A stretch of 64,000 nt of DNA, taken from NCBI GenBank assembly GCA_016218045.1, contig JACRFB010000063.1, forward strand, positions 68,226 through 132,225, written 5' to 3'. The notes beneath the pieces were generated by a model, which ran no database searches, was not told where the DNA came from, and was given only the letters and a program-made list of their open reading frames with translations. The position numbers and the translations under genes were made by a program. Origin of the DNA: Ignavibacteriota bacterium (GTDB lineage: Bacteria > Bacteroidota > Ignavibacteria > SZUA-365). Below, piece after piece: positions 10,277 through 63,091 of this stretch; position 1 is the stretch's first letter, and each line of letters starts with the position of its first letter.

Positions 10277-10756
10277 ATGAACGCACCGGTGCAGGGCGAC
10301 CTCCAGGCCGGATCCTCCCGATTCGCGATTGTCGCGAGCCGTTTCAACGACGTCATCACGCGCCGCCTGATAGAAGGCGCCACGGACTGCCTCCTGCGGC
10401 ACGGCGCCGATCCGTCGGCGATCGACACATACATCTGCCCGGGGTCCTTCGAAATTCCCCTGGTTGCATCTCGCATCGCCGCCACGAAAAAGCACGACGC
10501 AATCGTCTGTCTCGGCGCAGTGATCAAAGGAGACACGCCGCATAACGAGTATATCGCCGCGGAAGTGACAAAGGGCATCGCGCAGCTCATGCTGCAGCAT
10601 CAGCTCCCCATCTCGTTCGGTATCCTGACCACAAACACGCTCGAACAGGCGCTCGAACGCGCGGGACTCAAACACGGCAACAAGGGGTGGGAAGCCGCGC
10701 TCTCCGCTCTCGAAATGGTGAATCTTCTCGGTCAGATCGAACCCTCGGCAGCATGA
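10277..10756 (+). CDS. ribH: 6,7-dimethyl-8-ribityllumazine synthase
   Basis: RFAIVASRFNDVITRRLIEGA and 159 aa are typical of RibH. AGGAG RBS upstream. Confidence 0.85.
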   Translation: MNAPVQGDLQAGSSRFAIVASRFNDVITRRLIEGATDCLLRHGADPSAIDTYICPGSFEIPLVASRIAATKKHDAIVCLGAVIKGDTPHNEYIAAEVTKGIAQLMLQHQLPISFGILTTNTLEQALERAGLKHGNKGWEAALSALEMVNLLGQIEPSAA

Positions 10757-39785: not shown

Positions 39786-40319
39786 TCAGAATTCCGCGCG
39801 GTGTATCACCGGGGAACAGGAGGCACAGAATTCCGCGGGTTTGATGTCGATGTCCTCGACGTAGGTCGAGGCGTTCATGACGCAGGGTTCGTCGGCGCAG
39901 TGGCGCAGTCCGTAGGTGTGCCCGAGTTCGTGCAATGCCTCCTTGAATGAACGGCGGCGGAGCAGATGCGACGACGGCGCCAGACCGTAGAGATCGTTGC
40001 GCAGACGGAACGAGGAAAAAATGCAGGCGCGGGCGGCCAGTTGCGCCTGTCCGAAAATGTAGGTGAGCACGGGCAGAAAAAGATCGTGCGAGGTGACGCC
40101 GAGCAGTTTCGTCTTGCCGGGTGGAGCAGTGTCGAGCAGCATCTGCAGGATTCGTCCGCTGTGGTACTGCCTGCGCGAGGCGTCGTATGCCTCGCGGATG
40201 GGGACGGGCAATGCGCCGACCGTGACACGGGCCGCGAGCACCTGGCCCAGATCCGCGGCGAATTCGTCGAGAGACAGGTCGCGGTCGGCTTCGAGCGGGA
40301 TGAGCAGAATGTCCGTCAT
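39786..40319 (-). CDS. Archaemetzincin-family zinc metallopeptidase (M54)
   Basis: HELGHTYGLRHCADEPCVMN is the HEXXHXXGXXH-C-x4-C-x-M archaemetzincin signature. Confidence 0.65.
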   Translation of the reverse strand: MTDILLIPLEADRDLSLDEFAADLGQVLAARVTVGALPVPIREAYDASRRQYHSGRILQMLLDTAPPGKTKLLGVTSHDLFLPVLTYIFGQAQLAARACIFSSFRLRNDLYGLAPSSHLLRRRSFKEALHELGHTYGLRHCADEPCVMNASTYVEDIDIKPAEFCASCSPVIHRAEF

Positions 40320-40332
40320 TCCTTCGTCACCG

Positions 40333-41694
40333 CTATTCCGGCCGCTTCAGTCCGTACTTTTCGATCTTATTGTACAGTGTGACACGATCGATGGCCAGCC
40401 GCTCGGCGGAGCGGGTGATGTTCCAATTCATCTCCGAGAGCACCTGCACGATATGCCTGCGCTCCACATCCGCGAGACTCTCGCCGGCTGCGCCCGCGGC
40501 CCGCGTCGAGAGATGCATGGGCAGATCCTCCTCCTCGATGAAAGGCCGCGACGACACAACCATCGCGCGCTCAACCGCATTCTCGAGTTCACGCACATTG
40601 CCCGGCCACGCGTACGTCGTAAGCAAAGACATGGCGCCTTCGGAAAACTCCTTCGCGGTGCGATTCATCAGCCGCGCGTACTTGTGCACAAAATGTTCCG
40701 CCAGCATCGGTATGTCGCCCCTCCTCTCGCGCAGGGGCGGTATCGTGATCGCAAACACGTTGATGCGGTAGTACAGGTCCTCTCTGAACGTCCCGTCGCG
40801 CACGGCCGCCTCGAGGTCGGCATTGGTCGCACAGATGAGACGGAAATCCACGTGTATGGTCTGCTCGCCGCCCACGCGCTGGAACTGATGCGATTCGAGC
40901 ACGCGCAGCAGATCCACCTGGGTCTTGGGCGCAAGTGTGCCGATTTCGTCCAGGAACAGTGTTCCGCCATTTGCCATTTCGAATTTCCCTTTGCGTCTGT
41001 ACTGCGCGCCCGTGAACGATCCCTTTTCATGTCCGAAGAGTTCGCTCTCGAGCAGCGACTCCGACAGAGCGCCGCAGTTTACGGGGATGATGGGGAAGTA
41101 CTTCCGTGTGCTGTTCGCGTGTATTGCCCGCGCGATCAACTCCTTGCCCGTGCCGCTTTCGCCGCGTATCAGCACGGTCGATTTTGTCGGGGCCACGGTG
41201 CGGACGAGGTCGAATACCTTCACCATCTCCTCGCTCGCTCCGACGATGTCGTCGATATGATGCAGCGCGTCGACGGTCTGGCGGAGCTGCGCATTCTCTC
41301 GCGCGAGGCGTCGCTGCTGCGCCGCGTTGCGTACCATCGTCGAGAGCTCGTCGGGGTCGATCGGTTTGGTTACGTAATCGAAGGCGCCTGCCTTGAGGGC
41401 TCGGACGGCGGTGTCGACCGACGCGAACGCCGTGATGATGATGATGATGATGTCGGTATCGAATTCCCGGATGCGTTCCTGCAGCGCAAGGCCGTCCATG
41501 CCGGGCATCTTGATGTCCAGCAGCACGAGATCGATTCGTTCGCGCTGCAGGATGTCGAGGGCGGCGGCGGCGTTCTCGGCCGTGTGTACGCTGTAGCCGT
41601 CCTCGAGGAACCATTGTTCCAGGGATTCGCGGACGGACGCTTCGTCGTCAACGACGAGCAGGTGTATCGACGAAGTGGAGAGGGGATCGGTCAT
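40333..41694 (-). CDS. Sigma-54-dependent response regulator (NtrC family: REC + AAA+ + Fis-HTH)
   Basis: LLVVDDE...D(54-like) receiver. GESGTGKE Walker A. GAFTGA-like loop (EKGSFTGA). ESELFGHEKGSFTG. C-terminal HTH. ATGA overlap with the kinase gene. Confidence 0.85.
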   Translation of the reverse strand: MTDPLSTSSIHLLVVDDEASVRESLEQWFLEDGYSVHTAENAAAALDILQRERIDLVLLDIKMPGMDGLALQERIREFDTDIIIIIITAFASVDTAVRALKAGAFDYVTKPIDPDELSTMVRNAAQQRRLARENAQLRQTVDALHHIDDIVGASEEMVKVFDLVRTVAPTKSTVLIRGESGTGKELIARAIHANSTRKYFPIIPVNCGALSESLLESELFGHEKGSFTGAQYRRKGKFEMANGGTLFLDEIGTLAPKTQVDLLRVLESHQFQRVGGEQTIHVDFRLICATNADLEAAVRDGTFREDLYYRINVFAITIPPLRERRGDIPMLAEHFVHKYARLMNRTAKEFSEGAMSLLTTYAWPGNVRELENAVERAMVVSSRPFIEEEDLPMHLSTRAAGAAGESLADVERRHIVQVLSEMNWNITRSAERLAIDRVTLYNKIEKYGLKRPE

Positions 41695-43304
41695 GATGCC
41701 TGGTATTCTCTGTGTGTGTTTTCTGTGTCGCCTGAAACAGGAAGGGAGATGATGAAGGAACTGCCGTGTCCGGGCTCGCTCTGCACGGTGATGTCGCCGC
41801 CATGCTGTTTGACTATGCCGTACACGATCGAGAGGCCGAGGCCCGTGCCGAAGCCGCTTTCCTTCGTGGTGAAAAACGGTTCGAAGACGCGCTGCAGATC
41901 GGCGGCCGAGATGCCGATACCGGTGTCGGTGACGCGCAGCAGTGTGCGCCCTGCGTCGGTTGCGGCGTCCACGGTTAACGTGCCGCCGTCCGGCATGGCT
42001 TCGATCGCATTGATGAGCAGCGCGATGAGCACCTGCTGCAACTGCGACTCGTCGCAGTACGCGCGGACGGAAACGGGCGGCGGCTCGTAGCGCACCTCGA
42101 TCTGCTGCAGGTCGATCTGGTGCTGGACGAGGCGCAGCGAGCGCTCGATGAGCGTGTGCAGATTGCAGACCGCCCGCGACTGTGGATGCGCGCGCGCAAA
42201 AAACAGCAGGTTGCGGACGATGTCTCCGCAGCGCCGCGCCTCCTCTGCGATGATGTCGAGGTCGCTATTGATGCGCGCCAGCTTCTCTTGGTCCACAGTG
42301 TCGCGGAGCCGCTTGCGGCTCAATTTCGCAAGAGTCAGAATGCCCGAGAGCGGATTGTTCAACTCGTGTGCAATCATCGAGCTCAACTTGCCGAGCGACG
42401 CCATTTTTTCCATGTGTAGAACCTGCTCCTGCATCGACTGCAGTTCGCGCGTCTTCTGGTTCACCTTCTGCTCGAGTGTGTTCGACCAGTCGAGCAGCTC
42501 GTTGCGCGCGCCGTCCAAGTCAGCCGCCATACGGTTGAAGGCCTCGGCGAGACGCCCGATCTCGTCGGAACGCCGAGTCGTGATGCGGTGCCGCAGGTTT
42601 CCGGAGGCGATTTCGCGCGTGCCCGCGATCACTTGTTTCACCGGCCGATGCACGCCGACAAAGACAAAAATGGCGGAGACCGCGGCGACGGCGAGCAGGG
42701 TCACAACGGCCGAGGCGAGTTGCAGCAGTACACCGTCGTCGATGTGTTTGTCGGCGTATTCGAGACTCATCTGCACGTCGAGCACACCCAGCACCGTCTG
42801 TTCTTCGGAGTGGGCGTGACAGGCGGCATCCCAGCACCCGCGCTCGTTGCGTATCGGGTTGATGAAGCCAAGCACGCGATGACCCGACGGAGCGTAGTAC
42901 TTGCGCGCGTACTGATCGGAACTGGTCTTCACAAAATCGGAACCGCCGCCGTGGCACATGATGCAGGCGTCGGCCTTCACATCCACCACGTGCCCGATCT
43001 CAGAGAGCGAATCCGAATACTTGATCACCCCGCGCTTGTCGTAAATGCGAATGTGATCGATGCCGCGCAGGGATCCGAGATCCTGGATGATGGAACTCAG
43101 CTCCGACGAGTTGTTCTCCGACATACTTCGCCGCAGGGCCTGCTTGGTCATCTCGCTGGTGCGTTCCACCGCCTCCTGCACCGTCTGCTCGAGCGTTTCC
43201 CTCTGCGCGCGGATGCTGAATATCGTCGTCCCCAGCAGCACGACCGCGAGCGAGAGCACGAGAATCGTGACGATCTGAAGACTGAGCGAGCGGAAGATGT
43301 TCAT
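41691..43304 (-). CDS. Sensor histidine kinase with periplasmic domain carrying putative c-type heme-binding motifs
   Basis: TM1 - about 160-aa periplasmic segment with CIMCH (CXXCH) and CWDAACH (CX4CH) - TM2 - HAMP - HisKA (SMIAHELNNP) - HATPase (GTGLGLSIV). The start is approximate, because my hand translation around 43310-43325 disagreed with the ORF track by one base. Confidence 0.75.
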   Translation of the reverse strand: MNIFRSLSLQIVTILVLSLAVVLLGTTIFSIRAQRETLEQTVQEAVERTSEMTKQALRRSMSENNSSELSSIIQDLGSLRGIDHIRIYDKRGVIKYSDSLSEIGHVVDVKADACIMCHGGGSDFVKTSSDQYARKYYAPSGHRVLGFINPIRNERGCWDAACHAHSEEQTVLGVLDVQMSLEYADKHIDDGVLLQLASAVVTLLAVAAVSAIFVFVGVHRPVKQVIAGTREIASGNLRHRITTRRSDEIGRLAEAFNRMAADLDGARNELLDWSNTLEQKVNQKTRELQSMQEQVLHMEKMASLGKLSSMIAHELNNPLSGILTLAKLSRKRLRDTVDQEKLARINSDLDIIAEEARRCGDIVRNLLFFARAHPQSRAVCNLHTLIERSLRLVQHQIDLQQIEVRYEPPPVSVRAYCDESQLQQVLIALLINAIEAMPDGGTLTVDAATDAGRTLLRVTDTGIGISAADLQRVFEPFFTTKESGFGTGLGLSIVYGIVKQHGGDITVQSEPGHGSSFIISLPVSGDTENTHREYQAS

Positions 43305-43430: not shown

Positions 43431-44234
43431 CTACACCTCGGCGTCGGCCGAGCGCGGATACAACACGCCGCGGACAAGTTCCATGTACGCGGCCTCTCCG
43501 AAGGCCTCGTCGAGCGCCGACACTGTCTCGCCGCCGTCGTTGAGGCAGATGCCTCCGGGGGCGAGATGCGTTTCGAGACGGCGTGCTGCGCGGCGCATAA
43601 ACGTCGAGAGCACGGCCTCCTCCGCGATACGCGCGCGGGCCGGAGGTAGCATCGCCGGCCGCTCCGCGTCGTGTTTGGACGGAACGATACAAGCCAGCCA
43701 GCCGAGATCATAGGTGTTGGTGCGCAGGAACACGGGATCCTCACAGAGCTGCCTGTTCTGCCGGACCAGTGTTCCCGTGAGCGGCGACAACACGGGCAGC
43801 ACATTCGTGTGTGTGTAGATCCACGCGATCGGCCTGCCGCGTTCCACGGATTCGCTCATCGCGGGAAACACGATGCGGGCGGATGGCGGGAGCAACAGAG
43901 AGAAGGGATGGGTGATGCCCAGGTACGCGAGTTTGACGTCGTGGAAACGCGCCCAGGTATGGTCCGTCGAGTACGCCAATCCCTCGTGCAGATGCGAGGC
44001 GGTGAAGCCGCGGAGCAGCCGCACAATTGTTTCGTCGCAGGGGACAGGCAGGGGCACCTGCAGCGGCATATCCACTTCCGCGTCGGCCGCCGCGGGTCCC
44101 TGCTTGTCGTCCTTACGGAGCACGTGATCCAGCGGACATCGGTCGCAGTCAAATGCGCGGTCGCAGAGCTTGTAGGTGAGTATGCCCGCGTCCATCCAAA
44201 CGCATTTGCCCTCGGTATTCCTGGAGCCGCTCAT
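43431..44234 (-). CDS. Hypothetical protein with N-terminal Cys cluster and GcvH-like (hybrid-barrel) domain lacking the lipoyl-lysine
   Basis: C-x12-C-x5-C-x2-C near the N-terminus. HTWARFHDVKLAYLGITH...SPLTGTLV...YDLGWLACI parallels GcvH (HEW...GIT...SPVSG...PY..GW), but R replaces the ESVKA lysine. Confidence 0.4.
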   Translation of the reverse strand: MSGSRNTEGKCVWMDAGILTYKLCDRAFDCDRCPLDHVLRKDDKQGPAAADAEVDMPLQVPLPVPCDETIVRLLRGFTASHLHEGLAYSTDHTWARFHDVKLAYLGITHPFSLLLPPSARIVFPAMSESVERGRPIAWIYTHTNVLPVLSPLTGTLVRQNRQLCEDPVFLRTNTYDLGWLACIVPSKHDAERPAMLPPARARIAEEAVLSTFMRRAARRLETHLAPGGICLNDGGETVSALDEAFGEAAYMELVRGVLYPRSADAEV

Positions 44235-44282: not shown

Positions 44283-45497
44283 TCAGGAAACGGACACTTC
44301 GACCGTACCTTTCGGTGCTTCGCCTTTCACCGGACGGGCGGCCGAGAGGCGCACGGTCTGGTGTTTCTCCTCGTGCGAGATATCGGCGAAGATCGGGAGA
44401 TGTTTGACCGCGAAGCCGAACACCCAGAAACCGACTGTCACCACTGCAAGCGACACAAAAATCTCGCCGACGGAGGGGAAATACACGCCACCGTAATACG
44501 GTTCAATCGAAGTGAGCGCTACGTTGAGGCGGTTGGTGACAAAACCCAGCACCACCGACATGGCGCAGAGCGACAGGCCGAGACGCGTCTGCCCGAAGCC
44601 ACGGATGTTGAAGAGCACGATCGGCAGGACGAAGAACAGGGCGAGTTCCACGAGCAGCATGATTGTTTGCAGCGAGCCGTCGAGAAGCGCGAACTTGTTG
44701 CCGTGCACCATGTCGATCAAACGCATGGTTACGTACACAGTGGCGACACCGATCATTGCGCGGGCAAGGTCTCGCAGCAATGGCGTCTCGAGCGCCTTGT
44801 TAAAGACACGCGCGCTGAGGTACGACTCGACAATGGTCATCGCCAGGCCCACGGTGACGGCCGACACGAAGAAAAACACCGGCAGCATCGGCGAGTACCA
44901 GAAGGGATGCATTTTCTCGGGGATGATGAGATAGAGACTGCCAAGCGAGGACTGGTGCAGCATCGACAGGAGGATGCCCGCGACAACAAGCGGTATCGTG
45001 ATGGCCTTCATGATCTTGAGCAGGCGTGTCATCTTGAAGCGCTCGAGCACCACCGGACTGAATTCGAGGGCAAGCACCGTGGTGTAGAGCATCACACACC
45101 AGGCCACTTCGAACATGACCGAATGAGGATTCCACATGATGATCGCATGCCAGATCGACCAGGGACGTCCGAGGTCGAACATGAGACCCACGATCACGAG
45201 CAGATAACCGAGGAAGGCCGTCAGTACCGTCGGACGGACGATGGCCTTGAAGCGTTTCAGATTGAACACGTACACAATACCGCACAGAGTGAATCCGCCG
45301 GCGGCCAGACCCACTCCGGTGACAACATCGAAACCGATCCAGATGCCCCACGGTGCGGCATCGGAGAGATTGGTGGCCTTGCCGAGCCCGAAGGCAAAAC
45401 GCATGACGGCCGAGACGAGTCCGCCGAGCACAAAAAATGCGCCGAGGATCTTCCAGAAGGACAAGTGTTTTTTCAGGGATATCATGGACGACCTCAC
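44283..45497 (-). CDS. NrfD/PsrC-family polytopic membrane (quinone-interacting) subunit
   Basis: About 10 TM helices. NrfD-like motifs (SLYLIIPEKMHPFWYSP). 4-nt overlap with the upstream Fe-S gene. Confidence 0.75.
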   Translation of the reverse strand: MRSSMISLKKHLSFWKILGAFFVLGGLVSAVMRFAFGLGKATNLSDAAPWGIWIGFDVVTGVGLAAGGFTLCGIVYVFNLKRFKAIVRPTVLTAFLGYLLVIVGLMFDLGRPWSIWHAIIMWNPHSVMFEVAWCVMLYTTVLALEFSPVVLERFKMTRLLKIMKAITIPLVVAGILLSMLHQSSLGSLYLIIPEKMHPFWYSPMLPVFFFVSAVTVGLAMTIVESYLSARVFNKALETPLLRDLARAMIGVATVYVTMRLIDMVHGNKFALLDGSLQTIMLLVELALFFVLPIVLFNIRGFGQTRLGLSLCAMSVVLGFVTNRLNVALTSIEPYYGGVYFPSVGEIFVSLAVVTVGFWVFGFAVKHLPIFADISHEEKHQTVRLSAARPVKGEAPKGTVEVSVS

Positions 45498-46249
45498 TTC
45501 GTGCTGTTGTTATTGCGTTGGGATTCTTCGAACCGCTTCACTTCTTCGCGACGATGCGTGATCCAGTAGATCGCGGAGAAGGCCGCTCCCGCCGTCACAA
45601 CAACGTCGGGCAGTTTGGAAAGCACATTCCACGTTTTCTGCGGAAGCGCTTCGGATCCGATTTCGGTTTTGAATCCCAGTTTCTCGAAAGGCACGCTCGA
45701 GAGGAAGAGAACGGACATGCCGCCAATTTCCTTTTCGCCATAGATACGATGGACGTAGTTGTCCGGATTCTCGCTGATGCGGCGGTGCGCCTCGGCGAGC
45801 AATTCGTCGCGTTTCCCGAACAGCGTCGCGCCTGCGGGACACGCCTCGCTGCAGGCCGTCGGCTGTCCCTTCGACGTGCGTTCGTCGTAACACATGGTGC
45901 ATTTACGCACGCGGGGATTGTTGCTGCTCCACTCGTACTTCGGAATGTCGAACGGACAGGCGAGCATACAATAGCGGCAGCCGAGGCACTTCGAAGCGTC
46001 GTAGTTCACCGGGCCGGCCTTGGTCTTTTCGAGCGCACCGACGGGGCACACCGAGCCGCAGGCGGGCTCGTTGCAGTGGCGGCACATGCGGCGGACCCAG
46101 GTATCGCCGTATTGTTCGAGCGTCGTGAAATTCTTTTCGTTCAGATTGCGCGCCTCGATCTCGGGGAACCCGTGCGATTTCTGGCAGGCTGTACGGCATT
46201 CGCCGCAGCCCACGCACTGGGTGATGTCGATGAGAAGGGCATAGGACAT
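45494..46249 (-). CDS. NrfC/DmsB/HybA-like 4x[4Fe-4S] ferredoxin subunit, no Tat signal, C-terminal TM anchor
   Basis: Four Cys clusters (CVGCGECRTAC; CRHCNEPACGSVCP; CLGCRYCMLACP; CTMC...CSEACP). Starts directly at MSYALLIDITQC with no twin-arginine leader. Hydrophobic tail VVVTAGAAFSAIYWI. Confidence 0.75.
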   Translation of the reverse strand: MSYALLIDITQCVGCGECRTACQKSHGFPEIEARNLNEKNFTTLEQYGDTWVRRMCRHCNEPACGSVCPVGALEKTKAGPVNYDASKCLGCRYCMLACPFDIPKYEWSSNNPRVRKCTMCYDERTSKGQPTACSEACPAGATLFGKRDELLAEAHRRISENPDNYVHRIYGEKEIGGMSVLFLSSVPFEKLGFKTEIGSEALPQKTWNVLSKLPDVVVTAGAAFSAIYWITHRREEVKRFEESQRNNNSTK

Positions 46250-46356: not shown

Positions 46357-47025
46357 TCAGCGGAGAAATTCCTGTTCGAAGGTGTGCAGAGCTTCAGTGT
46401 CGAGATGTTCGAGCGAACCGGCAACCGCGACGCCGCCGTCGAGCATGGTCTCGCCTGCAAACGCCGGCTGCATCGCCTTCGCATGGAGGAATTCGCGGAA
46501 ACGCGCCGCCTCATTCCTGATCCACGTCACAGCACTCTCGGCGATCGACATCACGGAGAGGTTTGCCGCGAGCTGATCCGGCGCCACCGAAAACAACCAG
46601 CCCTCATCATATGGATTCGCGTCGATGAGCGCAGGGTTGTCGATCACATCGCGGTTGATCGCGATCACGGTGCCCGAAACCGGGGCGACAAGAGACAAAG
46701 CACGTCCGCCGCGGGACAGTGTGATCACGGGATCTCCCTGATTCACCTTCTGGCCGATGAATGGCAGTGTAACGTTCTCGATTGTGCCGAGCGCCTTCTG
46801 AATAAAATCATCAACACCAACAACCACATCGTCGCCGCCGCTCATGCGCGCCCACGTGTGCGCAGGATGGAAAAATATACCCTTGGGCATACGGACCACA
46901 TCCGACGCCGCTCCCTGCGCCTTCAGGACGGGCGACATCAGCGGATACTTCTTGTGGCGGATCTGAATTACCAGATCGATCGTCAACAGGGTGACGACAA
47001 ACAGGATGACGAATAATGCTACCAT
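46357..47025 (-). CDS. Membrane-anchored GcvH-like (glycine-cleavage H-fold) protein, non-lipoylatable
   Basis: N-terminal TM (VALFVILFVVTLLTIDLVI). HTWARMSGGDDVVVGVDDF...APVSGTVIAINRDV...ANPYDEGWLFSV matches the GcvH fold, but the lipoyl-Lys position is Arg/Gly. Confidence 0.5.
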   Translation of the reverse strand: MVALFVILFVVTLLTIDLVIQIRHKKYPLMSPVLKAQGAASDVVRMPKGIFFHPAHTWARMSGGDDVVVGVDDFIQKALGTIENVTLPFIGQKVNQGDPVITLSRGGRALSLVAPVSGTVIAINRDVIDNPALIDANPYDEGWLFSVAPDQLAANLSVMSIAESAVTWIRNEAARFREFLHAKAMQPAFAGETMLDGGVAVAGSLEHLDTEALHTFEQEFLR

Positions 47026-47084: not shown

Positions 47085-47100
47085 GAAATCATCCGCAATA
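47085..47100 (-). promoter_or_regulatory. Candidate sigma-54 (-24/-12) promoter for the GcvH-like/NrfCD-like operon
   Basis: Minus-strand sequence TGGTGC-GCTTA-TTGCG follows the consensus TGGCAC-N5-TTGCW, with GG and GC 11 nt apart. About 60 nt upstream of the 47025 start, and next to a sigma-54 activator gene. Confidence 0.3.
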
Positions 47101-47242
47101 AGCGCACCAGACTCGTTTGTCTCTTTTTCCGCATTTTTCAACACTTTTTTCTTACATCCCGACCGTTGACAATTCAGCGACTGTTGGATAATTCATCGGG
47201 AATCCAAAGGGGATTTATAAACCGAATGAAAATATTCACATA

Positions 47243-47283
47243 TACAAAAAACGGTGCCGTTGAAATTATCAACGGCACCGTTG
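47243..47283 (-). terminator. Rho-independent terminator downstream of the methyltransferase gene, inside an AT-rich island
   Basis: Perfect 13-bp inverted repeat ACGGTGCCGTTGA / TCAACGGCACCGT with a 5-nt loop. An A-tract on the + strand gives a U-tract for the minus-strand transcript. Confidence 0.5.
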
Positions 47284-54605: not shown

Positions 54606-54638
54606 CCATGCCGTCCGAGAGGGCGGCATGGTTTTTTT
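54606..54638 (+). terminator. Rho-independent terminator after the S9 peptidase gene
   Basis: CCATGCCG-tccgagagg-CGGCATGG followed by TTTTTTT. Confidence 0.6.
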
Positions 54639-54744
54639 ACGGGGGATTGTGTGTGCATGGATGAGGGTGTGCATTGCCCGGACGGGAGATGGGAACGTAT
54701 ATTCGGATAATGAAATCGTGAATAGTTCTTTCGCGGGGGTGTCC

Positions 54745-56460
54745 ATGCGTGGTCGTGCTGTGTGGTGCGGAGTGTGTGTGGGTGTCATGCTGCTGTGTGC
54801 AGGCGCGGTGCGGGCGCAGGACAGTTTCTTCGACCAGGCGTTGCGCGGGCCGCGCGGGGTGTGGTCCACAGGCATGGGACTGTCGGGCGTCGCGCGCGCG
54901 ACACCCGTGGTGGGCTTCTCGTACAATCCCGCGGCGTTTGCGCACGCGACACGGACCACTGCGACGCTGTTCCGCGCGCCGACATACTCGTGCTGCGATC
55001 CGATCGTGCTCCGCACAGCTTCGGTGGTGACTCCCATGCCGCTGCTTGGGGGTGTTATAGGATTGGAGGTACTTGACGACAACTTTGGAGAAGTGTATTT
55101 CGGCAGCGATGGGAACCTCGGCCTGTATGCCGACTCACGGATTATCGGCGTCGCCCTCGGATTCGGCACATCTCTCGGCGAAGACGTGGCGATAGGCGCG
55201 GCCTTCCGCGTGTTGGAAAACACCATAGAAGCTGATCGACAGGAAAGTGGCCTGCACAGCACTGCTCATCACATCGGAATGAGCATTGGGGTGCAGTACA
55301 ATCCCGACATCCTCGACAGACGGCTGCGGGCCGGTCTGGCGATCCTGGAAATGGGTCCGGAAATCGTGTACATCGACGAGGCGCAAGCGGACCCCGCGCC
55401 GACCTCGCTGCGTTTGGGTCTGGACGCGGAGCTTGTCGACGATGGCACCGTGTCGCTTCCGCTTACAGTGGAAGTGTCGAAGGGACTCATCAAGCGGGGG
55501 CACGAATATCGTGCACGTCCCTCCTGGGAGGCGCTGTTCAGCGACTGGAATGCGGTGCCGCGCGACATGGTGTTGCATCTCGGAATCGGATTCCTGTGGC
55601 GGCCACTCGCGCTCGGAAACGGGTGGACGTTCGCAACAGGCGTGGCCGTCGGCAATGCGAGTGTGGGACCGGAATATCCCACCCTCAATTTTCGCAACCA
55701 GTTCACAGCGTCGTACACCACTTCAGTAGAAAAAGACGGATACAGCGTGGAAGTGGGTGTGGCGACAAGCTGGCATCGATTGCCGATATACAATTACTCG
55801 GGGATAGAACCGCCCACGCTGCCGAACGACATGTTCGAGGCGACGGTGTCGGTGCCGTGGGCGCCGGGTGCCGCCACGATCGCCGCTGCTCCCGCCGTGG
55901 CGCTCGAGCACATCACACTATCCCTCGGCGCCGGTTTCCGCTCCTATAGCGGATGGGCCGCGCCCGCTGAGGGCATCGTGTATCGCGACGCGCTCGACCT
56001 GGAAGGCGACGCCTCCTTTGCGCTGTCGCCACACAGCGCCGTGGCCTTGACGCTGCAGCACACACGCGGCGACGTCGACGTAATGTTTCCGATGAACGAG
56101 ACAGATCCGCCCGTCGTGTACGACACGTACCGGCATCGCGGCTGGACCGTGCTTTCGTCGTATCGGCTGCATCCGCTCGAGCAGTTCCGCGCGCTCTTCA
56201 TCGGCGCGGGGGCCGGCATCGTCTACGACCAGCATGGCACCTCGAACCGGCTGCGCATGCTCGCTATGCGGAAGGCGCTGCATCCCGCCTTCGCCGTGGA
56301 GGCCGGTGTCGACTGGCCCGCGGCGGGACACCTTGTGCTCACTCCCCACGTGCGCTGGACACTCGTGCCCGGAAAAATCGAACACGGCGAACCACTGCGC
56401 CTCGGCGCGTATCACGCACTTTCTTTCGGTGTGCGTGTGGGATGGCGGGAGGGAGAGTAG
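54745..56460 (+). CDS. Hypothetical secreted/outer-membrane protein upstream of giant T9SS cargo gene
   Basis: Internal start MRGRAVWCGVCVGVMLLCAGAVRAQ (signal peptide). Alternating hydrophobic patterns suggest a beta-barrel. No catalytic motifs. Confidence 0.3.
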   Translation: MRGRAVWCGVCVGVMLLCAGAVRAQDSFFDQALRGPRGVWSTGMGLSGVARATPVVGFSYNPAAFAHATRTTATLFRAPTYSCCDPIVLRTASVVTPMPLLGGVIGLEVLDDNFGEVYFGSDGNLGLYADSRIIGVALGFGTSLGEDVAIGAAFRVLENTIEADRQESGLHSTAHHIGMSIGVQYNPDILDRRLRAGLAILEMGPEIVYIDEAQADPAPTSLRLGLDAELVDDGTVSLPLTVEVSKGLIKRGHEYRARPSWEALFSDWNAVPRDMVLHLGIGFLWRPLALGNGWTFATGVAVGNASVGPEYPTLNFRNQFTASYTTSVEKDGYSVEVGVATSWHRLPIYNYSGIEPPTLPNDMFEATVSVPWAPGAATIAAAPAVALEHITLSLGAGFRSYSGWAAPAEGIVYRDALDLEGDASFALSPHSAVALTLQHTRGDVDVMFPMNETDPPVVYDTYRHRGWTVLSSYRLHPLEQFRALFIGAGAGIVYDQHGTSNRLRMLAMRKALHPAFAVEAGVDWPAAGHLVLTPHVRWTLVPGKIEHGEPLRLGAYHALSFGVRVGWREGE

Positions 56461-56701: not shown

Positions 56702-59700
56702 ATGGCATTGACGGGATCTGTTGGTACCATCTCACACGCACGCAGGCTGTACTGCACAGGTAAAAACAGCACTCACGCAGCGCTGATTGCCATTGTAACC
56801 TGGATGATGTTCCCCGGCGCTGCCGCCGGACAGGATGTGCTGCTTCGCCGCACGAGTCCGGACCCGTACTTCGAGGAGAACCGCGGTCAGATCATGGACG
56901 AACACGGAAAGACGCGCCGCGATGTGCTCTTCGCCCAGCGTGACGGCGGTGCTTCTTTGTACCTGACGCGCGGCGGCTTCGAGTATGTGTTCGCGCGCGT
57001 GGAAAATCCTGATGCACCTGTCAGCGAAGCCACGGGCAGAGCCATGAGTGACCGTGATTCTCACCCGGTGATAACCGCGTACCAACGCGTGGACATGCGC
57101 TTCCGCGATCCATCGCCCTCCGTTCGTGTGCGAGGGATTGAAGAAAAGGACTACCTGCTCCACTATTACACCGTGGGTGCCGGACCGGACGCGGAGACCG
57201 TGCGCACCTTCGCGGGTGTCGTGTACGAGAACGTGTACCGCGGCATCGATCTCGTCCTGCGCGCGGAGCCGCGCGGGATAAAATACCACTGGGTTGTGCA
57301 TCCAGGCGCGTCAGTCGGCGACATCCGTGTATTCTGGTCTGGAGCGGACCGGCTGCAGCAGGAGCCGGATGGGGGACTGCGTGTGATCAGCACACTCGGC
57401 GAACTGTCGGAGGCACCGCCCGTTGCCTGGCAGGACACACCGACGGGACGACGGCCCGTGCAGGTTTCATCTCGTGTGGTTGGAATGGACATACATCTCG
57501 ACTGCGGGGACTACGATGCTGAACGCAAACTCACCGTTGATCCGCGTGTTATCTGGGCGACCTATTACGGTGGTGATCTGATTGATCGAGCGTGCGCGGT
57601 TGATACCGATGCCGATGACAACGTGGTTGTAGTTGGCGAAACAACAAGTCTCGCGGCCATCAGTACACCGGGCACATTTCAGGCAGTTCACGCCGGTGCC
57701 TGGGACGGTTTTATGGCAAAGTTCGACAGTGCCGGGAATCGACTTTGGAGTACCTACGTCGGTGGCGCAGCATCCGATAATCTTGTCAGTGTGTCCTGCG
57801 ATGGAAGTGGCATCATGGCCGCTGGCTCCACAACGAGTGCGGGCATGGCGACGAGTGGTGTACATCAGACAACACTGGGGGGGATCGCCGACATACTGCT
57901 CCTTCGGTTTAGTGCTGCCGGTGTGCGCCTGTGGGCGACCTATTACGGAGGCCCCGGGGCCGAGAGCCCGAGAGCCGTATCGCCGGGAGGCGGCGGGCGG
58001 GTGCTTGTCTCCGCCAGAACAAACAGCGGCTCGGGCATAGAAATCGGTGGGAGCTGGGGTGGCTATTCGGGAGGCACCGACGGCGCTGTGGCGGTTTTCA
58101 ACGCCAGCGGTGCTTTGCTTTGGGGGCGCTACATCGGCGGTCCCGATGAGGATCAATGCCACGGCATCACAACAGACGGTGCGCGCATTTTTGTCGCCGG
58201 TTCCACCCGGAGCACCACGGGGCTCGCAACACCGGGCGCCTTTCTCACAACGCAGCAAGGCGACTGGGACATGTTCCTGGCGTGTGTCGCGTACAACGGG
58301 ACAATCGACTGGGCAACATATTACGGCGGATCCGGGCTCGAATCCGATATAGCCAGTGGCATCCGGTACACAGGCGGCAACCGGATCATCATCGGAGGAA
58401 AAACAACGAGCACCTCCGGTATGACCACAACCGGCGTATTTCAGGAGACGCATCAAGGCGGGAGCGCCGATGGATTTCTCGCCGCCTTCGACAGCGCAGG
58501 GCATCGACACTGGGGTACCTACATCGGGAGCGCAGGGTGGGAAAGCATCACCGGACTCGATGTCGACGCAGAAGGCGCCATCATGATCTTCGGTCAGGCC
58601 ACGGCCACTTCGAGTCTGGCGAACTTCAACAATGTGCATCAGTCCACCCTCGCCACAGATGGACTATTTGTCGGGCGTGTGGAGGGAGAGGGGACGGATC
58701 TGCGCTGGTGTACCTTTTACGGCGGCTCACAGACATGGCCGGAAATGTGGGGTGCCTCGAACGGGTGTGTCGATCTCCGGGGTAATGTGTACGTCTGCGG
58801 GACCACAAACAGCCAGACGCTCATCGCCTACGGCAACCCGCATCAAGGCGCATTTGGCGGCGGATCCAGCGACGGCTGTCTTGCGAAATTTCTTGGAGGG
58901 AAGAATCGCATTGTGACCAGAGACGGTGCGCCTACGTATTGTGAGGGGGATACTCTCATCGTGCACTACGACCTCGCCGGCGTGTATGGTGATCACAATA
59001 TGTTCCATGCGCAGTTGTCGGATTCGACCGGGAACTTCGGTGCGCCAGTCATCATCGGTTCGGTGAAATCATGGATGCAGGATTCCATCATTGCGGTGAT
59101 TCCCGTCGGCACTCCGGGTGGTAGTGCGTACCGCATCCGTGTCGTGTCGACGAATCCCAGACTCGCAGGAACCGAGACGAGGGCCTTCCGTATTGTTCCG
59201 CTCCCTGTTGCCATTGTTGCACCTGCGGGCACCGTGTCGATCTGCGAAGGGCAGAGCTTGATATTACGTGCTGACAGTGCGATGAATTGCACGTACGTGT
59301 GGGAAGAGCAGACACGCGGTATGGAGGGCGTGGGTCCATCGCTACTCGTCACACGCACGGGAAAGTATCGCGTGGTGGTGACGAACACAGGCGGCTGCCG
59401 TGCCTGGTCGCCGTGGACGGAGGTAGTCGCTTCACCGCGTCCGCTCGCGACTATCACACCGTGGGATGTGCAAGGAGTCTGTGAAGGGGACAGCGTCGTT
59501 CTGTCAGGACCCGACAGCACAGGGTACACATTTGAGTGGTCCACCGGCGAAACAACACGTGTGCTCCGGGTGAGCAAGCCGGGACTCTATCGCCTTGTGG
59601 TGCGGAATGCCGCGGGGTGTTCGGACACGTCGGCACCCGTGCGCGTTGTCGTGTATCCGTTGCCGGTGTTGTCGGTGGCGGGGCGCGGGCGTGCCTGTCA

Positions 59701-62700
59701 GTACACTGTGTGGTCGTACCGAGTGACGAAACCCGCCGGGACGTCGCTCGTGTGGACGGCCACGGGCGGGGCGGTGCTGCAGGCACAGGGCGACAGCGCG
59801 GTGGTGCAGTGGACGTTGCCGGGGATGCGCATGGTGCAGGTGACATGCCGTGTGGACTCGAGCGGCTGCACGTCGACGGCAACGCTGCCGGTGCAAGTGG
59901 ATGCATTCGTTCCACCCGCGATCGAGGCGGATCCGAAACACATCTGCCGCGGCAGCGAACTGCGGCTGAAGGTGCAGCGGGGCTACGCGCGTGTTGCATG
60001 GAACACAGGGGCGACGACGGACGAGATCGTTGTCCGCACCCCCGGCATGTACCGCGTGCGTGTGGAGACGTCGGACGGCTGCGCGGGCGAGGACTCGGTG
60101 CGCATCACGGTTGTCGATCCACCCAATGCACAGGCGCCAACCGACACGACGATCTGCGGCGAGTCGGAGGTGCTGCTTACGGGTGATGCACGTGACGGCA
60201 CACCGCCGTACGGCTACCGGTGGATCGGTGAGAATGTGACAGACGAGTACGCGCGCACGACCACGGCCCGTCCGTCAACGGCGGGGATCTATGTGCTGGA
60301 GGTGACGGACGCGAACGGTTGCACGGGGCGCGACACACTGCGTGTGCAGAAGCGTGCGGCGCCGCCGGTGGGGATCCGCGCGCTGGGTGCGCTGCGTTTC
60401 TGTCTGGGCGACAGCGTGACTCTGGAGGCGGATGCGGGCTTTGTGCGTTATGAGTGGAGCGACGGACAGCGGGGCCGTCGCGTCGTGATCCGCCGTGCGG
60501 GCATGTATCATGTGCTTGCCACGGATACGTCGGGCTGCACGGCGCGGTCGGATCCGCTCACGGTGGAGGTGAAGGCGATCGCCGTGAACATCACTGCTCT
60601 GGGCCCGTTGCGTTTCTGCGCGGGCGACAGCGTGGTGTTGCGCGTGGAGGGCGCGCCCGCGCGTGTGCGCTGGAACACGGGCGATAGTACACGATACCTC
60701 GTCGTCCGCAGCACGGGCACGTACTGGGCGCGGGGCTGGGACACGTTCGGCTGCGAGGGGGCCTCGCTGCCGCTGCAGGTGACAGTGAATCCGCTGCCAC
60801 GTGTTGCGATCGGCGGTCCGGCGAGTGTGTGCGCGGGCACAGTTGGCAGGCACTGGCTGCGCGAGGTGCGGGGATTGCGCGTACTCTGGCGCATCGAGAA
60901 CGGGACGCTGCTCACCGGCGAGAATGCGGACACGGTGGACGTGCGCTGGTCCGTCGCGGGGAACGGCCGCCTCGTGCTCACGTGTACGGACACAACAACG
61001 GGCTGCACGGACAGCACGATTGCACCCATCATCATAGGGACCTCGCTCACTCCCGTGATCGTCGGTCCAACGGCCATCTGCGCGGGCGACACGGCGGTGT
61101 TCGACGCGGGGGACGGGTACGCGTTCTACACGTGGCGTAACGAGGCGGACAGCATTGTCGGCACCAGATCACAACTCCGCGTTACAACCGCGGGCCGTTA
61201 CCGCGTGTTTGTGCGTGATGCGGGTACCTGCGAGGGGGATGCCTCGCACAGACTCATCGTTCATCCGAAGCCCGGTGTATCGATCGTCGGAGCCGCCTCG
61301 TTCTGCACGGGCGACAGTGTACTGCTCTCCGCATCGGGAACATTTATCCAGTATGTCTGGCGGAATGAATCGGATACTGTTGTCGGAAATACACCGACGT
61401 ACACCGTTCGGACACCAGGTCTGTACACACTCGCCGTGACAGACGGGAACGGGTGTACAGCCCGCTCCACGCCGCACGCAGTAAGCGAACTCGCACACCC
61501 CGTCGCGGCGATCGCGGGACCTACGAGCGCGTGCAGCGGAACGGTGCAGAGGTATGGAACACCGCCTGGGACGGGCGTCGCATATCGATGGAGCGTGCTG
61601 AATGGCACGACGCTGTCCGCCTCCGATGCGGACACGTTCACCGTGCGCTGGGACGCGCCCGGGACGGGTCGTGTCGTGCTCACTGTCACGAACGCTGCGT
61701 GCAGCGCAAGCGACACACTGGACTTGACGGTGGGATCCTCGCTCACACCTTCCATCGCGGGCAGATCACGTATCTGCGCGGGCGACTCGGCCCTGCTCGA
61801 TGCGGGCGCGGGCTACAGGAGTTACCTGTGGAGATTGCCGAACGGCGACAGCGCAGACACACGGTCGATCCGCATCGCGGCAACGGGTGTGTACACAGTG
61901 ACCGTGTACGACGAGGGCGGGTGTTCAGGATCGGCGCGGCATCTCCTGCGTGTGGATGTGCTCCCCGCACCCGCGATCGCGGGTCCACAGGAGATCTGCG
62001 CGGGCGACACGGCGGTGCTCGATGCCGGTGTGTTCGCAGGTGTGTACACCTGGCGTGACGCAATGGGGACCATGCTCGGCGTGCAGCGCACACTCGCCGT
62101 CACACAGACGGGAGTGTTCACAGTAACAGTCACCGACACGAACAGTTGCACGGGCTCGTCGCCACCGCACGCGCTTCTTGTGCATCCGCGTCCATCAAAA
62201 CCCGTCGTCACCCTCCGCGGCGACACCCTCGCCACCGTGGCGGGATACGCGTACCGCTGGTATCGCAACGACACACTCATCGCGGGCGCCGCATCCGACA
62301 CACACATCGCGGCCTCACCCGGCTGGTATCACGTGTCGATCACCGACACTCACGGCTGCACGAACGAGGCGGATCCCATCGAATACACCGGCGCGGCGCG
62401 TGTGGCCACGGCGCACATCATCCTTCCATTCCTCGAGGCAGCTCCCGGCGAGCGCGTCGAGATCCCGGTCGTGATCGCCGCCTCCACGCACCTCGATGCG
62501 GCGGACGTGCGCTCGTTCCGTGCCACACTGCGCTACCACGCCGGCGTGCTCGCACCGATGGGTTCCACGCCGCCAGGTGTGTTATCCGGTGCCGAACGTC
62601 TCATCCCGTTCACGGCCGATACCGCGTCCCGTCCGCTGTCGCCCGGGCCCGTGTGGCCGCCGGTGGCGACACTCGTGTTCCGCGCGACACTCGGATCCGT

Positions 62701-63091
62701 GTCACAGACGCCGCTGACACTTGAGGACATGAACTTCGGCGCGACCGACGTCCGCGTGACGGTGCAGCCGGGCGGCTTCCGGCTCCTCGTGTGCAGAGAG
62801 GGAGGGGAGCGGTTGTTCTCGGACAGCGGGCGGCTTTCTATCGGACAGAACAGTCCGAATCCATTCAACGCGCAGACGACGATCGAGTACGAGACCATCG
62901 AGAACGGTCCGGTGTTCCTCGCCGTGTACGATCTGCTCGGCCGCGAGACCGCCGTGCTTGTCGACGCGCCGCTTGTGCCCGGCCGGCGCCGCGTACTCTT
63001 CGACGCGCAGGCCCTTCCCTCCGGACAGTACATCGCCGTGCTCCGCAGCGGCAGCGGTGTGCGCACGATGCGGATGGTTGTTGCGAAGTGA
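56702..63091 (+). CDS. Giant (2129 aa) T9SS-secreted surface protein: N-terminal SBBP-type beta-propeller repeats + about 14 tandem Ig-like two-Cys repeats + Por_Secre_tail C-terminal domain
   Basis: YYGG...D.A..VD.D.DNVVVVGET.S...... repeats (SBBP, PF06739-like). About 80-aa repeats with a conserved C.GDS..L.A......Y.W......G.Y.V.VTD.NGC..S pattern. C-terminus GQNSPNPFNAQTTIEYE...GQYIAVLRSG...MRMVVAK. Confidence 0.7.
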   Translation: MALTGSVGTISHARRLYCTGKNSTHAALIAIVTWMMFPGAAAGQDVLLRRTSPDPYFEENRGQIMDEHGKTRRDVLFAQRDGGASLYLTRGGFEYVFARVENPDAPVSEATGRAMSDRDSHPVITAYQRVDMRFRDPSPSVRVRGIEEKDYLLHYYTVGAGPDAETVRTFAGVVYENVYRGIDLVLRAEPRGIKYHWVVHPGASVGDIRVFWSGADRLQQEPDGGLRVISTLGELSEAPPVAWQDTPTGRRPVQVSSRVVGMDIHLDCGDYDAERKLTVDPRVIWATYYGGDLIDRACAVDTDADDNVVVVGETTSLAAISTPGTFQAVHAGAWDGFMAKFDSAGNRLWSTYVGGAASDNLVSVSCDGSGIMAAGSTTSAGMATSGVHQTTLGGIADILLLRFSAAGVRLWATYYGGPGAESPRAVSPGGGGRVLVSARTNSGSGIEIGGSWGGYSGGTDGAVAVFNASGALLWGRYIGGPDEDQCHGITTDGARIFVAGSTRSTTGLATPGAFLTTQQGDWDMFLACVAYNGTIDWATYYGGSGLESDIASGIRYTGGNRIIIGGKTTSTSGMTTTGVFQETHQGGSADGFLAAFDSAGHRHWGTYIGSAGWESITGLDVDAEGAIMIFGQATATSSLANFNNVHQSTLATDGLFVGRVEGEGTDLRWCTFYGGSQTWPEMWGASNGCVDLRGNVYVCGTTNSQTLIAYGNPHQGAFGGGSSDGCLAKFLGGKNRIVTRDGAPTYCEGDTLIVHYDLAGVYGDHNMFHAQLSDSTGNFGAPVIIGSVKSWMQDSIIAVIPVGTPGGSAYRIRVVSTNPRLAGTETRAFRIVPLPVAIVAPAGTVSICEGQSLILRADSAMNCTYVWEEQTRGMEGVGPSLLVTRTGKYRVVVTNTGGCRAWSPWTEVVASPRPLATITPWDVQGVCEGDSVVLSGPDSTGYTFEWSTGETTRVLRVSKPGLYRLVVRNAAGCSDTSAPVRVVVYPLPVLSVAGRGRACQYTVWSYRVTKPAGTSLVWTATGGAVLQAQGDSAVVQWTLPGMRMVQVTCRVDSSGCTSTATLPVQVDAFVPPAIEADPKHICRGSELRLKVQRGYARVAWNTGATTDEIVVRTPGMYRVRVETSDGCAGEDSVRITVVDPPNAQAPTDTTICGESEVLLTGDARDGTPPYGYRWIGENVTDEYARTTTARPSTAGIYVLEVTDANGCTGRDTLRVQKRAAPPVGIRALGALRFCLGDSVTLEADAGFVRYEWSDGQRGRRVVIRRAGMYHVLATDTSGCTARSDPLTVEVKAIAVNITALGPLRFCAGDSVVLRVEGAPARVRWNTGDSTRYLVVRSTGTYWARGWDTFGCEGASLPLQVTVNPLPRVAIGGPASVCAGTVGRHWLREVRGLRVLWRIENGTLLTGENADTVDVRWSVAGNGRLVLTCTDTTTGCTDSTIAPIIIGTSLTPVIVGPTAICAGDTAVFDAGDGYAFYTWRNEADSIVGTRSQLRVTTAGRYRVFVRDAGTCEGDASHRLIVHPKPGVSIVGAASFCTGDSVLLSASGTFIQYVWRNESDTVVGNTPTYTVRTPGLYTLAVTDGNGCTARSTPHAVSELAHPVAAIAGPTSACSGTVQRYGTPPGTGVAYRWSVLNGTTLSASDADTFTVRWDAPGTGRVVLTVTNAACSASDTLDLTVGSSLTPSIAGRSRICAGDSALLDAGAGYRSYLWRLPNGDSADTRSIRIAATGVYTVTVYDEGGCSGSARHLLRVDVLPAPAIAGPQEICAGDTAVLDAGVFAGVYTWRDAMGTMLGVQRTLAVTQTGVFTVTVTDTNSCTGSSPPHALLVHPRPSKPVVTLRGDTLATVAGYAYRWYRNDTLIAGAASDTHIAASPGWYHVSITDTHGCTNEADPIEYTGAARVATAHIILPFLEAAPGERVEIPVVIAASTHLDAADVRSFRATLRYHAGVLAPMGSTPPGVLSGAERLIPFTADTASRPLSPGPVWPPVATLVFRATLGSVSQTPLTLEDMNFGATDVRVTVQPGGFRLLVCREGGERLFSDSGRLSIGQNSPNPFNAQTTIEYETIENGPVFLAVYDLLGRETAVLVDAPLVPGRRRVLFDAQALPSGQYIAVLRSGSGVRTMRMVVAK

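Follow-up and report, generated by a model that had tools for sequence, protein, structure and literature searches.

The 64,000-nucleotide stretch of DNA analysed here (the window) is from an Ignavibacteriota bacterium (GenBank assembly GCA_016218045.1, contig JACRFB010000063.1, positions 68,226 to 132,225 of the forward strand). We focused on a gene in the window that encodes a sensor histidine kinase which, judged by its sequence, is a probable redox or gas sensor. The protein is identical to NCBI MBI5648571.1, publicly labelled merely 'HAMP domain-containing histidine kinase'. According to Pfam and hydropathy analysis the order of parts is a first transmembrane helix (TM1), a periplasmic sensor, a second transmembrane helix (TM2), HAMP, HisKA and HATPase_c. 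The corresponding positions in the window are given below. GSU0935, named in the list, is a Geobacter sulfurreducens chemoreceptor with a haem-c sensor domain.

41691–43304, minus strand: sensor histidine kinase, 537 amino acids, ATG at 43304 (MNIFRS...), from translation, Pfam and hydropathy
43215–43283, minus strand: TM1, residues ~8–30 (hydropathy)
42723–43214, minus strand: predicted periplasmic single-Cache (PAS-like) sensor, residues 31–194 (AlphaFold2, Foldseek and sub-threshold Pfam matches)
43122–43124, minus strand: Met61, invariant in the family and paired with Met60 of GSU0935 in alignment
42951–42965, minus strand: CIMCH, a CXXCH motif (C114, C117 and H118; residues 114–118), the canonical motif for a haem-c site
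42816–42836, minus strand: CWDAACH, a CX4CH motif (C157, C162 and H163; residues 157–163), putative haem-c site
42810–42836, minus strand: CWDAACHAH, the CX4CH motif plus H165, aligned with the CXXCH/His144 site of GSU0935
42651–42722, minus strand: TM2, residues ~195–218 (hydropathy)
42516–42650, minus strand: HAMP, residues 219–263 (Pfam, E = 1.6e-14)
42189–42395, minus strand: HisKA, residues 304–372, with phospho-acceptor H313 within AHELNNP (Pfam and family alignment)
41736–42053, minus strand: HATPase_c, residues 418–523 (Pfam, E = 4.5e-29)

Two cysteine-histidine motifs occupy the 164-residue loop between the membrane helices. The loop has exactly four cysteines and every one is inside a motif. 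A preliminary description of the locus had reported CXXCH and CX4CH motifs within positions 42810–42975, between two transmembrane helices. Both motifs are indeed present, and both are flanked by TM1 and TM2. The spacing, given earlier as about 45 residues, is 43 residues when counted between the first cysteines. HAMP directly follows TM2 and must be cytoplasmic. Hence, the predicted layout agrees with the periplasmic location assumed in the preliminary description; residues 31–194, set between two membrane helices and right before HAMP, must be periplasmic. The kinase core was nearest to the AtoS and ZraS models in a model search. Kinases of this type partner sigma-54 regulators.

Chance was considered as the origin of the motifs and ruled out. 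When the loop was shuffled, both motif types co-occurred in a fraction of 8.4e-5 of 2,000,000 shuffled loops. Conservation of the motifs in homologues, described below, also rules out chance. No CXXCH was found in the other plausible open reading frames (ORFs) of the window.

Conservation and distribution of the sensor

A search with the sensor region identified 32 relatives, with 21–40% identity to the window protein. When these sequences are aligned, C162 and H163 do not vary, and conservation at C157, H165 and M61 is 90% or more. The first CXXCH is kept in all but five (P0028–P0032), which have a short deletion at this point. Four of the five retain CX4CHAH; the other, P0030, also lacks the first cysteine of CX4CH. 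Since CXXCH is deleted in this subgroup and CX4CHAH is mostly kept, the alignment indicates that CX4CH is the core site and the putative CXXCH haem an add-on.

The pattern is the same in a broader sample. When 73 full-length representatives were aligned to the window protein, no variation was seen at M61, G92, C114, C117, H118, C162 or H163, and conservation at C157 and H165 was 90% or more. Hence, the cysteines and histidines of both motifs, whose conservation the preliminary description had left to be checked, are invariant or nearly so. A regular expression search of the relatives gave 163 matches, of which 160 have CX4CH as the second motif and the other 3 have CX3CH. Two more cases of CX3CH were among sequences outside these matches. 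A CXXCH is upstream of the second motif in 158 matches, at a median distance of 43 residues (range 42–50). Fifteen relatives were missed by the regular expression; they differ downstream of the motif only and 12 have both motifs. The exceptions are a sequence without the first cysteine of motif 2, a sequence without the histidine of motif 1 and P0030, which lacks motif 1 as well as the first cysteine of motif 2. In total, about 160 of 178 relatives have both motifs at fixed spacing.

To size the family, we ran an exhaustive HMMER search with a profile of 11 sensor sequences, counting clusters at 50% identity. This returned 3,139 representatives at E ≤ 1e-3, 1,629 at 1e-10 and 484 at 1e-30. Species were scanned using one genome each and the 11-sequence alignment (A2). 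At least 587 species, from more than 10 phyla, have a relative of the kinase sensor. The earlier view that periplasmic haem-c sensors are rare does not survive these counts of about 3,100 clusters and at least 587 species. Acidobacteriota account for most of the best 80 species, which further include Ignavibacteriota, Bacteroidota, Gemmatimonadota, Eisenbacteria, Planctomycetota, Deferribacteres, Elusimicrobia, Methylomirabilis and Gammaproteobacteria. A cultured carrier, Geothrix paludis SG195, is among them. By cluster look-up, the divergent representatives include metagenome-assembled genomes (MAGs) of Desulfobacterales and no Geobacter. Similarly, word-indexed protein searches for relatives of the sensor gave no Geobacter entries; the matches were short fragments only. 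Public annotation of family members is nothing more specific than 'HAMP domain-containing histidine kinase' or 'NtrC family sensor kinase', and no Pfam model takes in the two-haem family above threshold.

Similarity to Geobacter haem-c sensors

We compared the sensor with known domains by profile and by structure. All Pfam matches of the window sensor are sub-threshold: sCache_3_2 (20.9 bits, below the gathering threshold) and PF21563 (Mcp40H-20_sensor; 20.0 bits, E = 8.7e-4, where the cut-off is 27 bits). PF21563 is founded on chemoreceptor sensors of G. sulfurreducens. It is matched by 39 of the 73 representatives at E ≤ 0.01, the best at 1.3e-7. Consistent with this, hmmsearch of the Protein Data Bank (PDB) with the family profile identified 3b42, the sensor of GSU0935, at E = 2.7e-4 and 3b47, the sensor of GSU0582, at E = 0.13. 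Comparison of the family profile with the 3b42 sequence using hhalign gave a probability of 87% and E = 4.2e-6.

The two profile methods agree in register. Both place 'NEPxCSxAACHAH' of the family opposite 'NEQRC--QSCHD' of GSU0935. Hence, C157, C162 and H163 are counterparts of the haem-binding cysteine, cysteine and histidine of GSU0935, with four intervening residues instead of two. In both alignments, the invariant Met61 is opposite the first methionine of 'GYMM' in 3b42. Opposite the first CXXCH, GSU0935 has a gap of some 16 columns; compared with the mono-haem sensors of Geobacter, this motif therefore belongs to an insertion. The alignments thus identify CX4CH, not CXXCH, as the counterpart of the Geobacter haem site.

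An AlphaFold2 model has a mean predicted local distance difference test score (pLDDT) of 82.8 and a predicted template modelling score of 0.72. A single continuous helix (residues 2–62) comprises TM1 and a periplasmic helix ending at M61. Next are a five-stranded sheet, with short helices at both motifs, and strand 5 runs into TM2. Foldseek comparison with the PDB identified WalK (4ywz, 3.6e-6), GSU0935 (3b42_B, 7.6e-5) and GSU0582 (3b47, 1.5e-3), together with Cache domains of KinD and CitA (1p0z at 4.6e-4). Taken together, sequence profiles and the predicted structure identify the sensor as a single-Cache (PAS-like) domain homologous to the haem-c sensors of GSU0935 and GSU0582. The tie to Geobacter-type sensors drawn in the preliminary description is thus borne out by three routes to 3b42 (profile, hhalign and Foldseek) and by the matches to PF21563.

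The ligands of the GSU0935 haem are His144 and Met60 (PMC8396549). Both GSU0935 and GSU0582 change between high-spin and low-spin states on passing between oxidised and reduced forms, because the distal ligand is replaced (PMC8396549).

A conserved gene cluster around the kinase

From position 47025 down to 39786 all genes are on the minus strand and are separated by short gaps. Besides the kinase gene, the cluster and its flank contain the following features.

47250–47282, minus strand: strong intrinsic terminator, a 14-bp stem then a T run, which ends the preceding methyltransferase gene
47089–47104, minus strand: candidate sigma-54 -24/-12 promoter TGGTGCGCTTATTGCG, 79 nucleotides upstream of the first ATG of the cluster
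46357–47025, minus strand: membrane-anchored GcvH-like protein without the lipoyl-lysine, first gene of the cluster (Pfam)
45494–46249, minus strand: four-cluster Fe-S subunit, HmcB/HybA-like, with a C-terminal anchor and no twin-arginine translocation (Tat) signal (HmcB 6e-71, HybA 3e-60)
44283–45497, minus strand: NrfD-family membrane subunit, HmcC/HybB-like, quinone-interacting (HmcC 6e-98, HybB 3e-84; both sub-equivalog)
43431–44234, minus strand: second GcvH-like protein, with a cysteine-rich N-terminus and without the lipoyl-lysine; present in only some related loci
40333–41694, minus strand: NtrC-type regulator with a receiver domain (REC), a sigma-54 AAA+ domain (GSFTGA) and HTH_8 (Pfam, Sigma54_activat, and sequence)
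39786–40319, minus strand: M54 (archaemetzincin-like) metallopeptidase (Pfam)

The start of the regulator gene overlaps the kinase stop codon by 4 nucleotides. The pair has NtrB/NtrC-type features; a HisKA and HATPase_c core is adjacent to a regulator with REC, sigma-54 AAA+ and HTH_8 domains. To compare gene content, related loci were searched by tblastn with the window's neighbour genes. The comparison covered the best 80 loci (L002–L081) and denominators are the loci with enough flanking sequence. Homologues of the Fe-S and NrfD genes are immediately upstream of the kinase gene, on the same strand, at 60 of 67 loci. A full sigma-54 regulator is downstream of the kinase at 48 of 63, and a homologue of the M54 peptidase is downstream of the regulator at 47 of 63. 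Hence, the sigma-54 activator and the quinone-linked Fe-S module beside the kinase, a pairing remarked on in the preliminary description for this one locus, recur at 48 of 63 and 60 of 67 loci. Gene order in these genomes indicates that the pairing is conserved across phyla and is not incidental. The conserved cluster (GcvH-like, Fe-S, NrfD, the second GcvH-like protein in some, kinase, regulator and M54) spans more than 10 phyla and contains no catalytic subunit. We found no description of such an NrfD-like/GcvH/kinase cluster in the literature searched.

The terminator upstream of the cluster marks it off as a separate transcription unit. In the candidate promoter TGGTGCGCTTATTGCG the GG and GC elements are properly spaced, and there are 3 mismatches to the consensus TGGCAC-N5-TTGCW. 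We also scanned 210 nucleotides upstream of gene starts for this consensus, allowing at most 2 mismatches with GG and GC fixed. At related loci, sigma-54-like sites were found before GcvH-like, Fe-S or kinase starts 25 times, compared to 3.8 expected (P = 7e-13). The simplest interpretation is that the quinone-linked module is under the control of the two-component system and transcribed together with it.

Several other observations concern products of the cluster. The Fe-S subunit (45494–46249) has no Tat or general secretory (Sec) signal in the window, nor at most related loci. An upstream alternative start, which would give the protein a Tat signal, was rejected because there is a stop codon 10 codons upstream. 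In the C-terminal anchor, lysine and arginine are mostly after the helix (3.2 compared to 1.2), as in the Tat-exported HybA. A minority of related loci encode an Fe-S subunit with an apparent Tat-type RR signal; these include L035, L008, L004, L005, L022, L024, L044, L050 and L053. At the two of them that were checked for a cytochrome gene, a c3/c7-type multihaem cytochrome is encoded just upstream of the Fe-S and NrfD genes (L035:7211-7684 and L008:3918-4724), an arrangement equal to an Hmc/Cbc-like periplasmic module beside the same kind of kinase.

The lipoyl-lysine is absent from all five GcvH-like proteins compared. The column of the lipoyl-lysine in E. coli GcvH, which we take to be that of 'ESVKAAS', has glycine and threonine in the two proteins of the window. 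The cysteine-rich N-terminus of the second protein (43431–44234) is CVWMDAGILTYKLCDRAFDCDRC. At L049, L035, L008 and L050 (Geothrix paludis SG195 and several MAGs) a protein with transmembrane, REC and GcvH-like parts is encoded directly after the kinase. For two of the ORFs, L049:11546-12664 and L035:6044-7204, Pfam confirmed both REC and GcvH. Judged by its domains, such a protein would act as a response regulator bound to the membrane, its output being GcvH-like.

Elsewhere in the window, on the plus strand, positions 10687–12996, 54628–56460 and 56702–63091 encode Type IX secretion-related proteins (PorZ-like and PorV-like) and a large surface protein. The surface protein has 2,129 amino acids with DUF7948, PKD and CHU_C-associated Ig domains, in keeping with the Ignavibacteriota/FCB group.

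Comparison with known systems

The closest characterised relatives of the sensor are those of GSU0935 and GSU0582 (3B42 and 3B47; PF21563). Like the window sensor, these are periplasmic and lie between two membrane helices, and they share with it a PAS-like/single-Cache fold and detectable sequence homology. The covalent haem-c site of the Geobacter proteins and CX4CH of the window kinase occupy an equivalent position in the alignment, before the last strand. A methionine on the N-terminal helix, the distal ligand in Geobacter, is also common to both. However, the homologous site is CXXCH in the Geobacter proteins and CX4CH in the window kinase, where the CXXCH insertion provides a putative second site that the mono-haem GSU0935 lacks. 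The output also differs, being a chemoreceptor for GSU0935 and GSU0582 and a HAMP histidine kinase with a sigma-54 regulator for the window protein.

Proteins with more than one haem motif are also on record. Twelve signal transducers of G. sulfurreducens contain c-type haem motifs of the form CX2-4CH, either one or two each (PMC8396549). Those with two are GSU0591 and GSU0599, the latter a two-component protein (PMC8396549). In Anaeromyxobacter, both Adeh_2011 and Adeh_3383 carry an extra haem motif (PMC3831638). Judged by locus number, GSU0599 is the gene next to GSU0598. The latter codes for the sigma-54 response regulator BccR, which switches on cbcBA, genes for a quinol oxidoreductase, when the redox potential drops (bioRxiv 10.1101/2021.04.15.440034). 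On this basis Geobacter too brings together a two-motif protein (GSU0599, itself uncharacterised), a regulator of the sigma-54 type and a quinone-linked complex. The regulated module differs; Geobacter has the b/c-type cytochrome CbcBA, whereas the window encodes an Fe-S/NrfD pair that is free of haem, accompanied by GcvH-like proteins.

A second family, DUF3365/Tll0287 (sCache_haem), consists of extracytoplasmic Cache sensors with a covalent c-type haem, and its datasets include GSU0582 and GSU0935 (PMC12889525, Deshpande et al. 2026 preprint). A canonical CXXCH, strictly conserved (99%), is the defining feature of the family, which has properties of a nitric oxide (NO) sensor (PMC12889525). 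It resembles the window sensor in using an extracytoplasmic Cache fold as the sensor module. However, strict CXXCH contrasts with CX4CH at the homologous site, and an extra putative haem, in the window family. The DUF3365 profile gave no match to the window sensor at E ≤ 10, and DUF3365 was not among the matches listed (25 of 38 families) for the 73 relatives.

Cytochrome c3 (class III) has CX4CH haem attachment motifs. A relationship to this protein was considered and rejected because the fold of the window sensor is a Cache alpha/beta fold whereas c3 is a small all-haem core. The kinase has no match to the Pfam models for cytochrome c3 or c7 (Cytochrom_CIII). The E. coli Ccm machinery tolerates CX3CH and CX4CH. 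A review of System I does not mention CX4CH, and literature searches on CX4CH sensor kinases returned nothing specific.

We conclude that the window protein is most plausibly a previously uncharacterised member of the periplasmic c-haem Cache/PAS-like sensors, already a recognised kind. The two-haem CX4CH branch to which it would belong has been mentioned in passing in the literature, and never defined or tested.

A proposed model for signalling by the kinase

The best overall explanation, which we consider likely, is that the protein is a two-haem Cache kinase with Met61-linked switching and a sigma-54 output acting on its own cluster. In this model the covalent attachment of haem, the residues that act as ligands, the signal that is sensed and the genes that are controlled are all inferred. 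The loop of residues 31–194, a single-Cache domain, would hold two covalently bound c-type haems. Haem 2 would be bound via C157 and C162 of CX4CH, with H163 as the proximal ligand, and would correspond to the one haem present in each of GSU0935 and GSU0582. The invariant Met61, where the helix extending from TM1 ends, would be the distal ligand of haem 2. Haem 1 would be bound via C114 and C117 of CXXCH, in the family-specific insertion, with H118 as the proximal ligand.

Besides H118 and H163, exactly two potential axial ligands are conserved: M61 and H165. Homology suggests that His163 and Met61 ligate the CX4CH haem and that this haem is switchable. With M61 given to this haem only H165 is left and we therefore assign it, by elimination, to the CXXCH haem, which is then probably His118/His165-ligated. 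Haem 1 would thus probably be of the bis-His, low-spin electron-transfer type, and probably serve as an electron entry or relay beside haem 2. By analogy with the Geobacter domains, methionine ligation of haem 2 might be lost or gained with oxidation state or with binding of a small ligand.

Since the helix bearing M61 is an extension of TM1 and strand 5 runs into TM2, such a ligand change would be mechanically coupled to the membrane helices and HAMP. A change in redox state or ligation would shift the Met61 helix and TM1 against TM2. Coupling of this sort would resemble that of other Cache kinases. HAMP would then relay the movement to the kinase core, which would phosphorylate the sigma-54 activator encoded by the overlapping gene. 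In turn, the activator would turn on sigma-54 promoters, the likeliest target being the promoter before its own cluster.

Several results weigh against this model. The window protein's own matches to sCache_3_2 and PF21563 are both sub-threshold, and the top structural matches are haem-free Cache domains, such as that of WalK. The AlphaFold2 model is of the apo form and is least confident in the motif regions; mean pLDDT for blocks of 10 residues is 61 and 48 at about residues 111–130, and 70 and 64 at about 151–170. Neither cytochrome c maturation genes nor further c-type cytochromes were found in the 64-kb window. We know of no documented case in which System II (CcsBA, expected in this phylum) matures CX4CH sites. 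Upstream of the window's cluster genes there are no sigma-54 sites with 2 or fewer mismatches. Finally, GSU0599 is likened to the window kinase by its description in the literature and its locus number, not by sequence.

Alternative explanations

The same cofactors could serve a different signal. A diatomic gas (NO, carbon monoxide (CO) or O2) might bind at the Met-ligated or a five-coordinate haem, for stress or respiratory control. Related haem-Cache domains (DUF3365/Tll0287) behave as sensors of NO, not O2, when fused to signalling modules (PMC12889525), and a labile distal methionine, here the invariant M61, is typical of ligand-exchange sensors. However, the second, probably bis-His, haem suggests electron transfer, as does the conserved linkage to a quinone-linked Fe-S/NrfD module. 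Furthermore, variant loci have linked c3/c7-type cytochromes, and no genes for NO detoxification are nearby in the window. We regard a gas signal as unlikely on this evidence. Redox-responsive regulation, as put forward in the preliminary description, is favoured by the motifs, homology and genomic context, with the reservation that sequence alone does not separate it from sensing of NO, CO or O2.

A different role for the neighbouring proteins can also be envisaged. The GcvH-like, Fe-S and NrfD proteins might form one dedicated membrane device with the kinase, which reports how far the quinone pool or periplasmic electron carriers are reduced or oxidised. The NrfCD-type module could then be the signal input, or a directly controlled output, for the kinase haems rather than a catalytic respiratory enzyme. 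We raise this because the cluster is without a catalytic subunit, because the NrfD gene abuts the kinase gene in many Acidobacteriota, and because a receiver-bearing GcvH-like protein follows the kinase in some lineages (Geothrix paludis and others). In such a device, the receiver-bearing protein would, on the basis of its domains, be a phosphorylation-controlled membrane effector. The proposal is speculative and we think it improbable.

Alternatively, haem may be attached at one motif only, the other cysteine pair being a disulfide, a metal site or a structural relic. The subgroup P0028–P0032 is wholly without the first CXXCH, one representative is without the first cysteine of motif 2 and another without the histidine of motif 1. 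CX4CH is also an uncommon substrate of the haem attachment machinery. Conversely, in 73 divergent representatives the cysteines and histidine of each motif either do not vary or are conserved to 90% or more, and M61 and H165 supply exactly the two distal ligands that a pair of haems would need. Moreover, selection on the histidine beside the second cysteine is a signature of haem attachment and not of a disulfide. A single haem thus seems very unlikely.

We can largely dismiss the idea that there is no haem, and that the protein is an ordinary ligand-binding Cache sensor with cysteines for zinc, an Fe-S cluster or disulfides: the best Foldseek matches are cofactor-free Cache domains and the Pfam matches are sub-threshold, but CX4CH and M61 pair residue for residue with the Cys-Cys-His and methionine of a solved haem-c sensor, the histidine after the second cysteine is invariant in both motifs, and the domain is periplasmic, where haem attachment occurs.

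Implications

To our knowledge, work on periplasmic c-haem sensors has been confined to two mono-haem chemoreceptors of Geobacter and, recently, to the DUF3365 family. The window kinase is a clear member of a much larger and taxonomically broad branch, with two putative haems, that spans Acidobacteriota, Ignavibacteriota, Bacteroidota, Gemmatimonadota, Desulfobacterota and other phyla. Geothrix paludis SG195 is a cultured carrier that could be used for experiments. The conserved NrfCD-type quinone module and the sigma-54 wiring provide a testable model for how many soil and sediment bacteria may match membrane electron transfer to ambient redox conditions.

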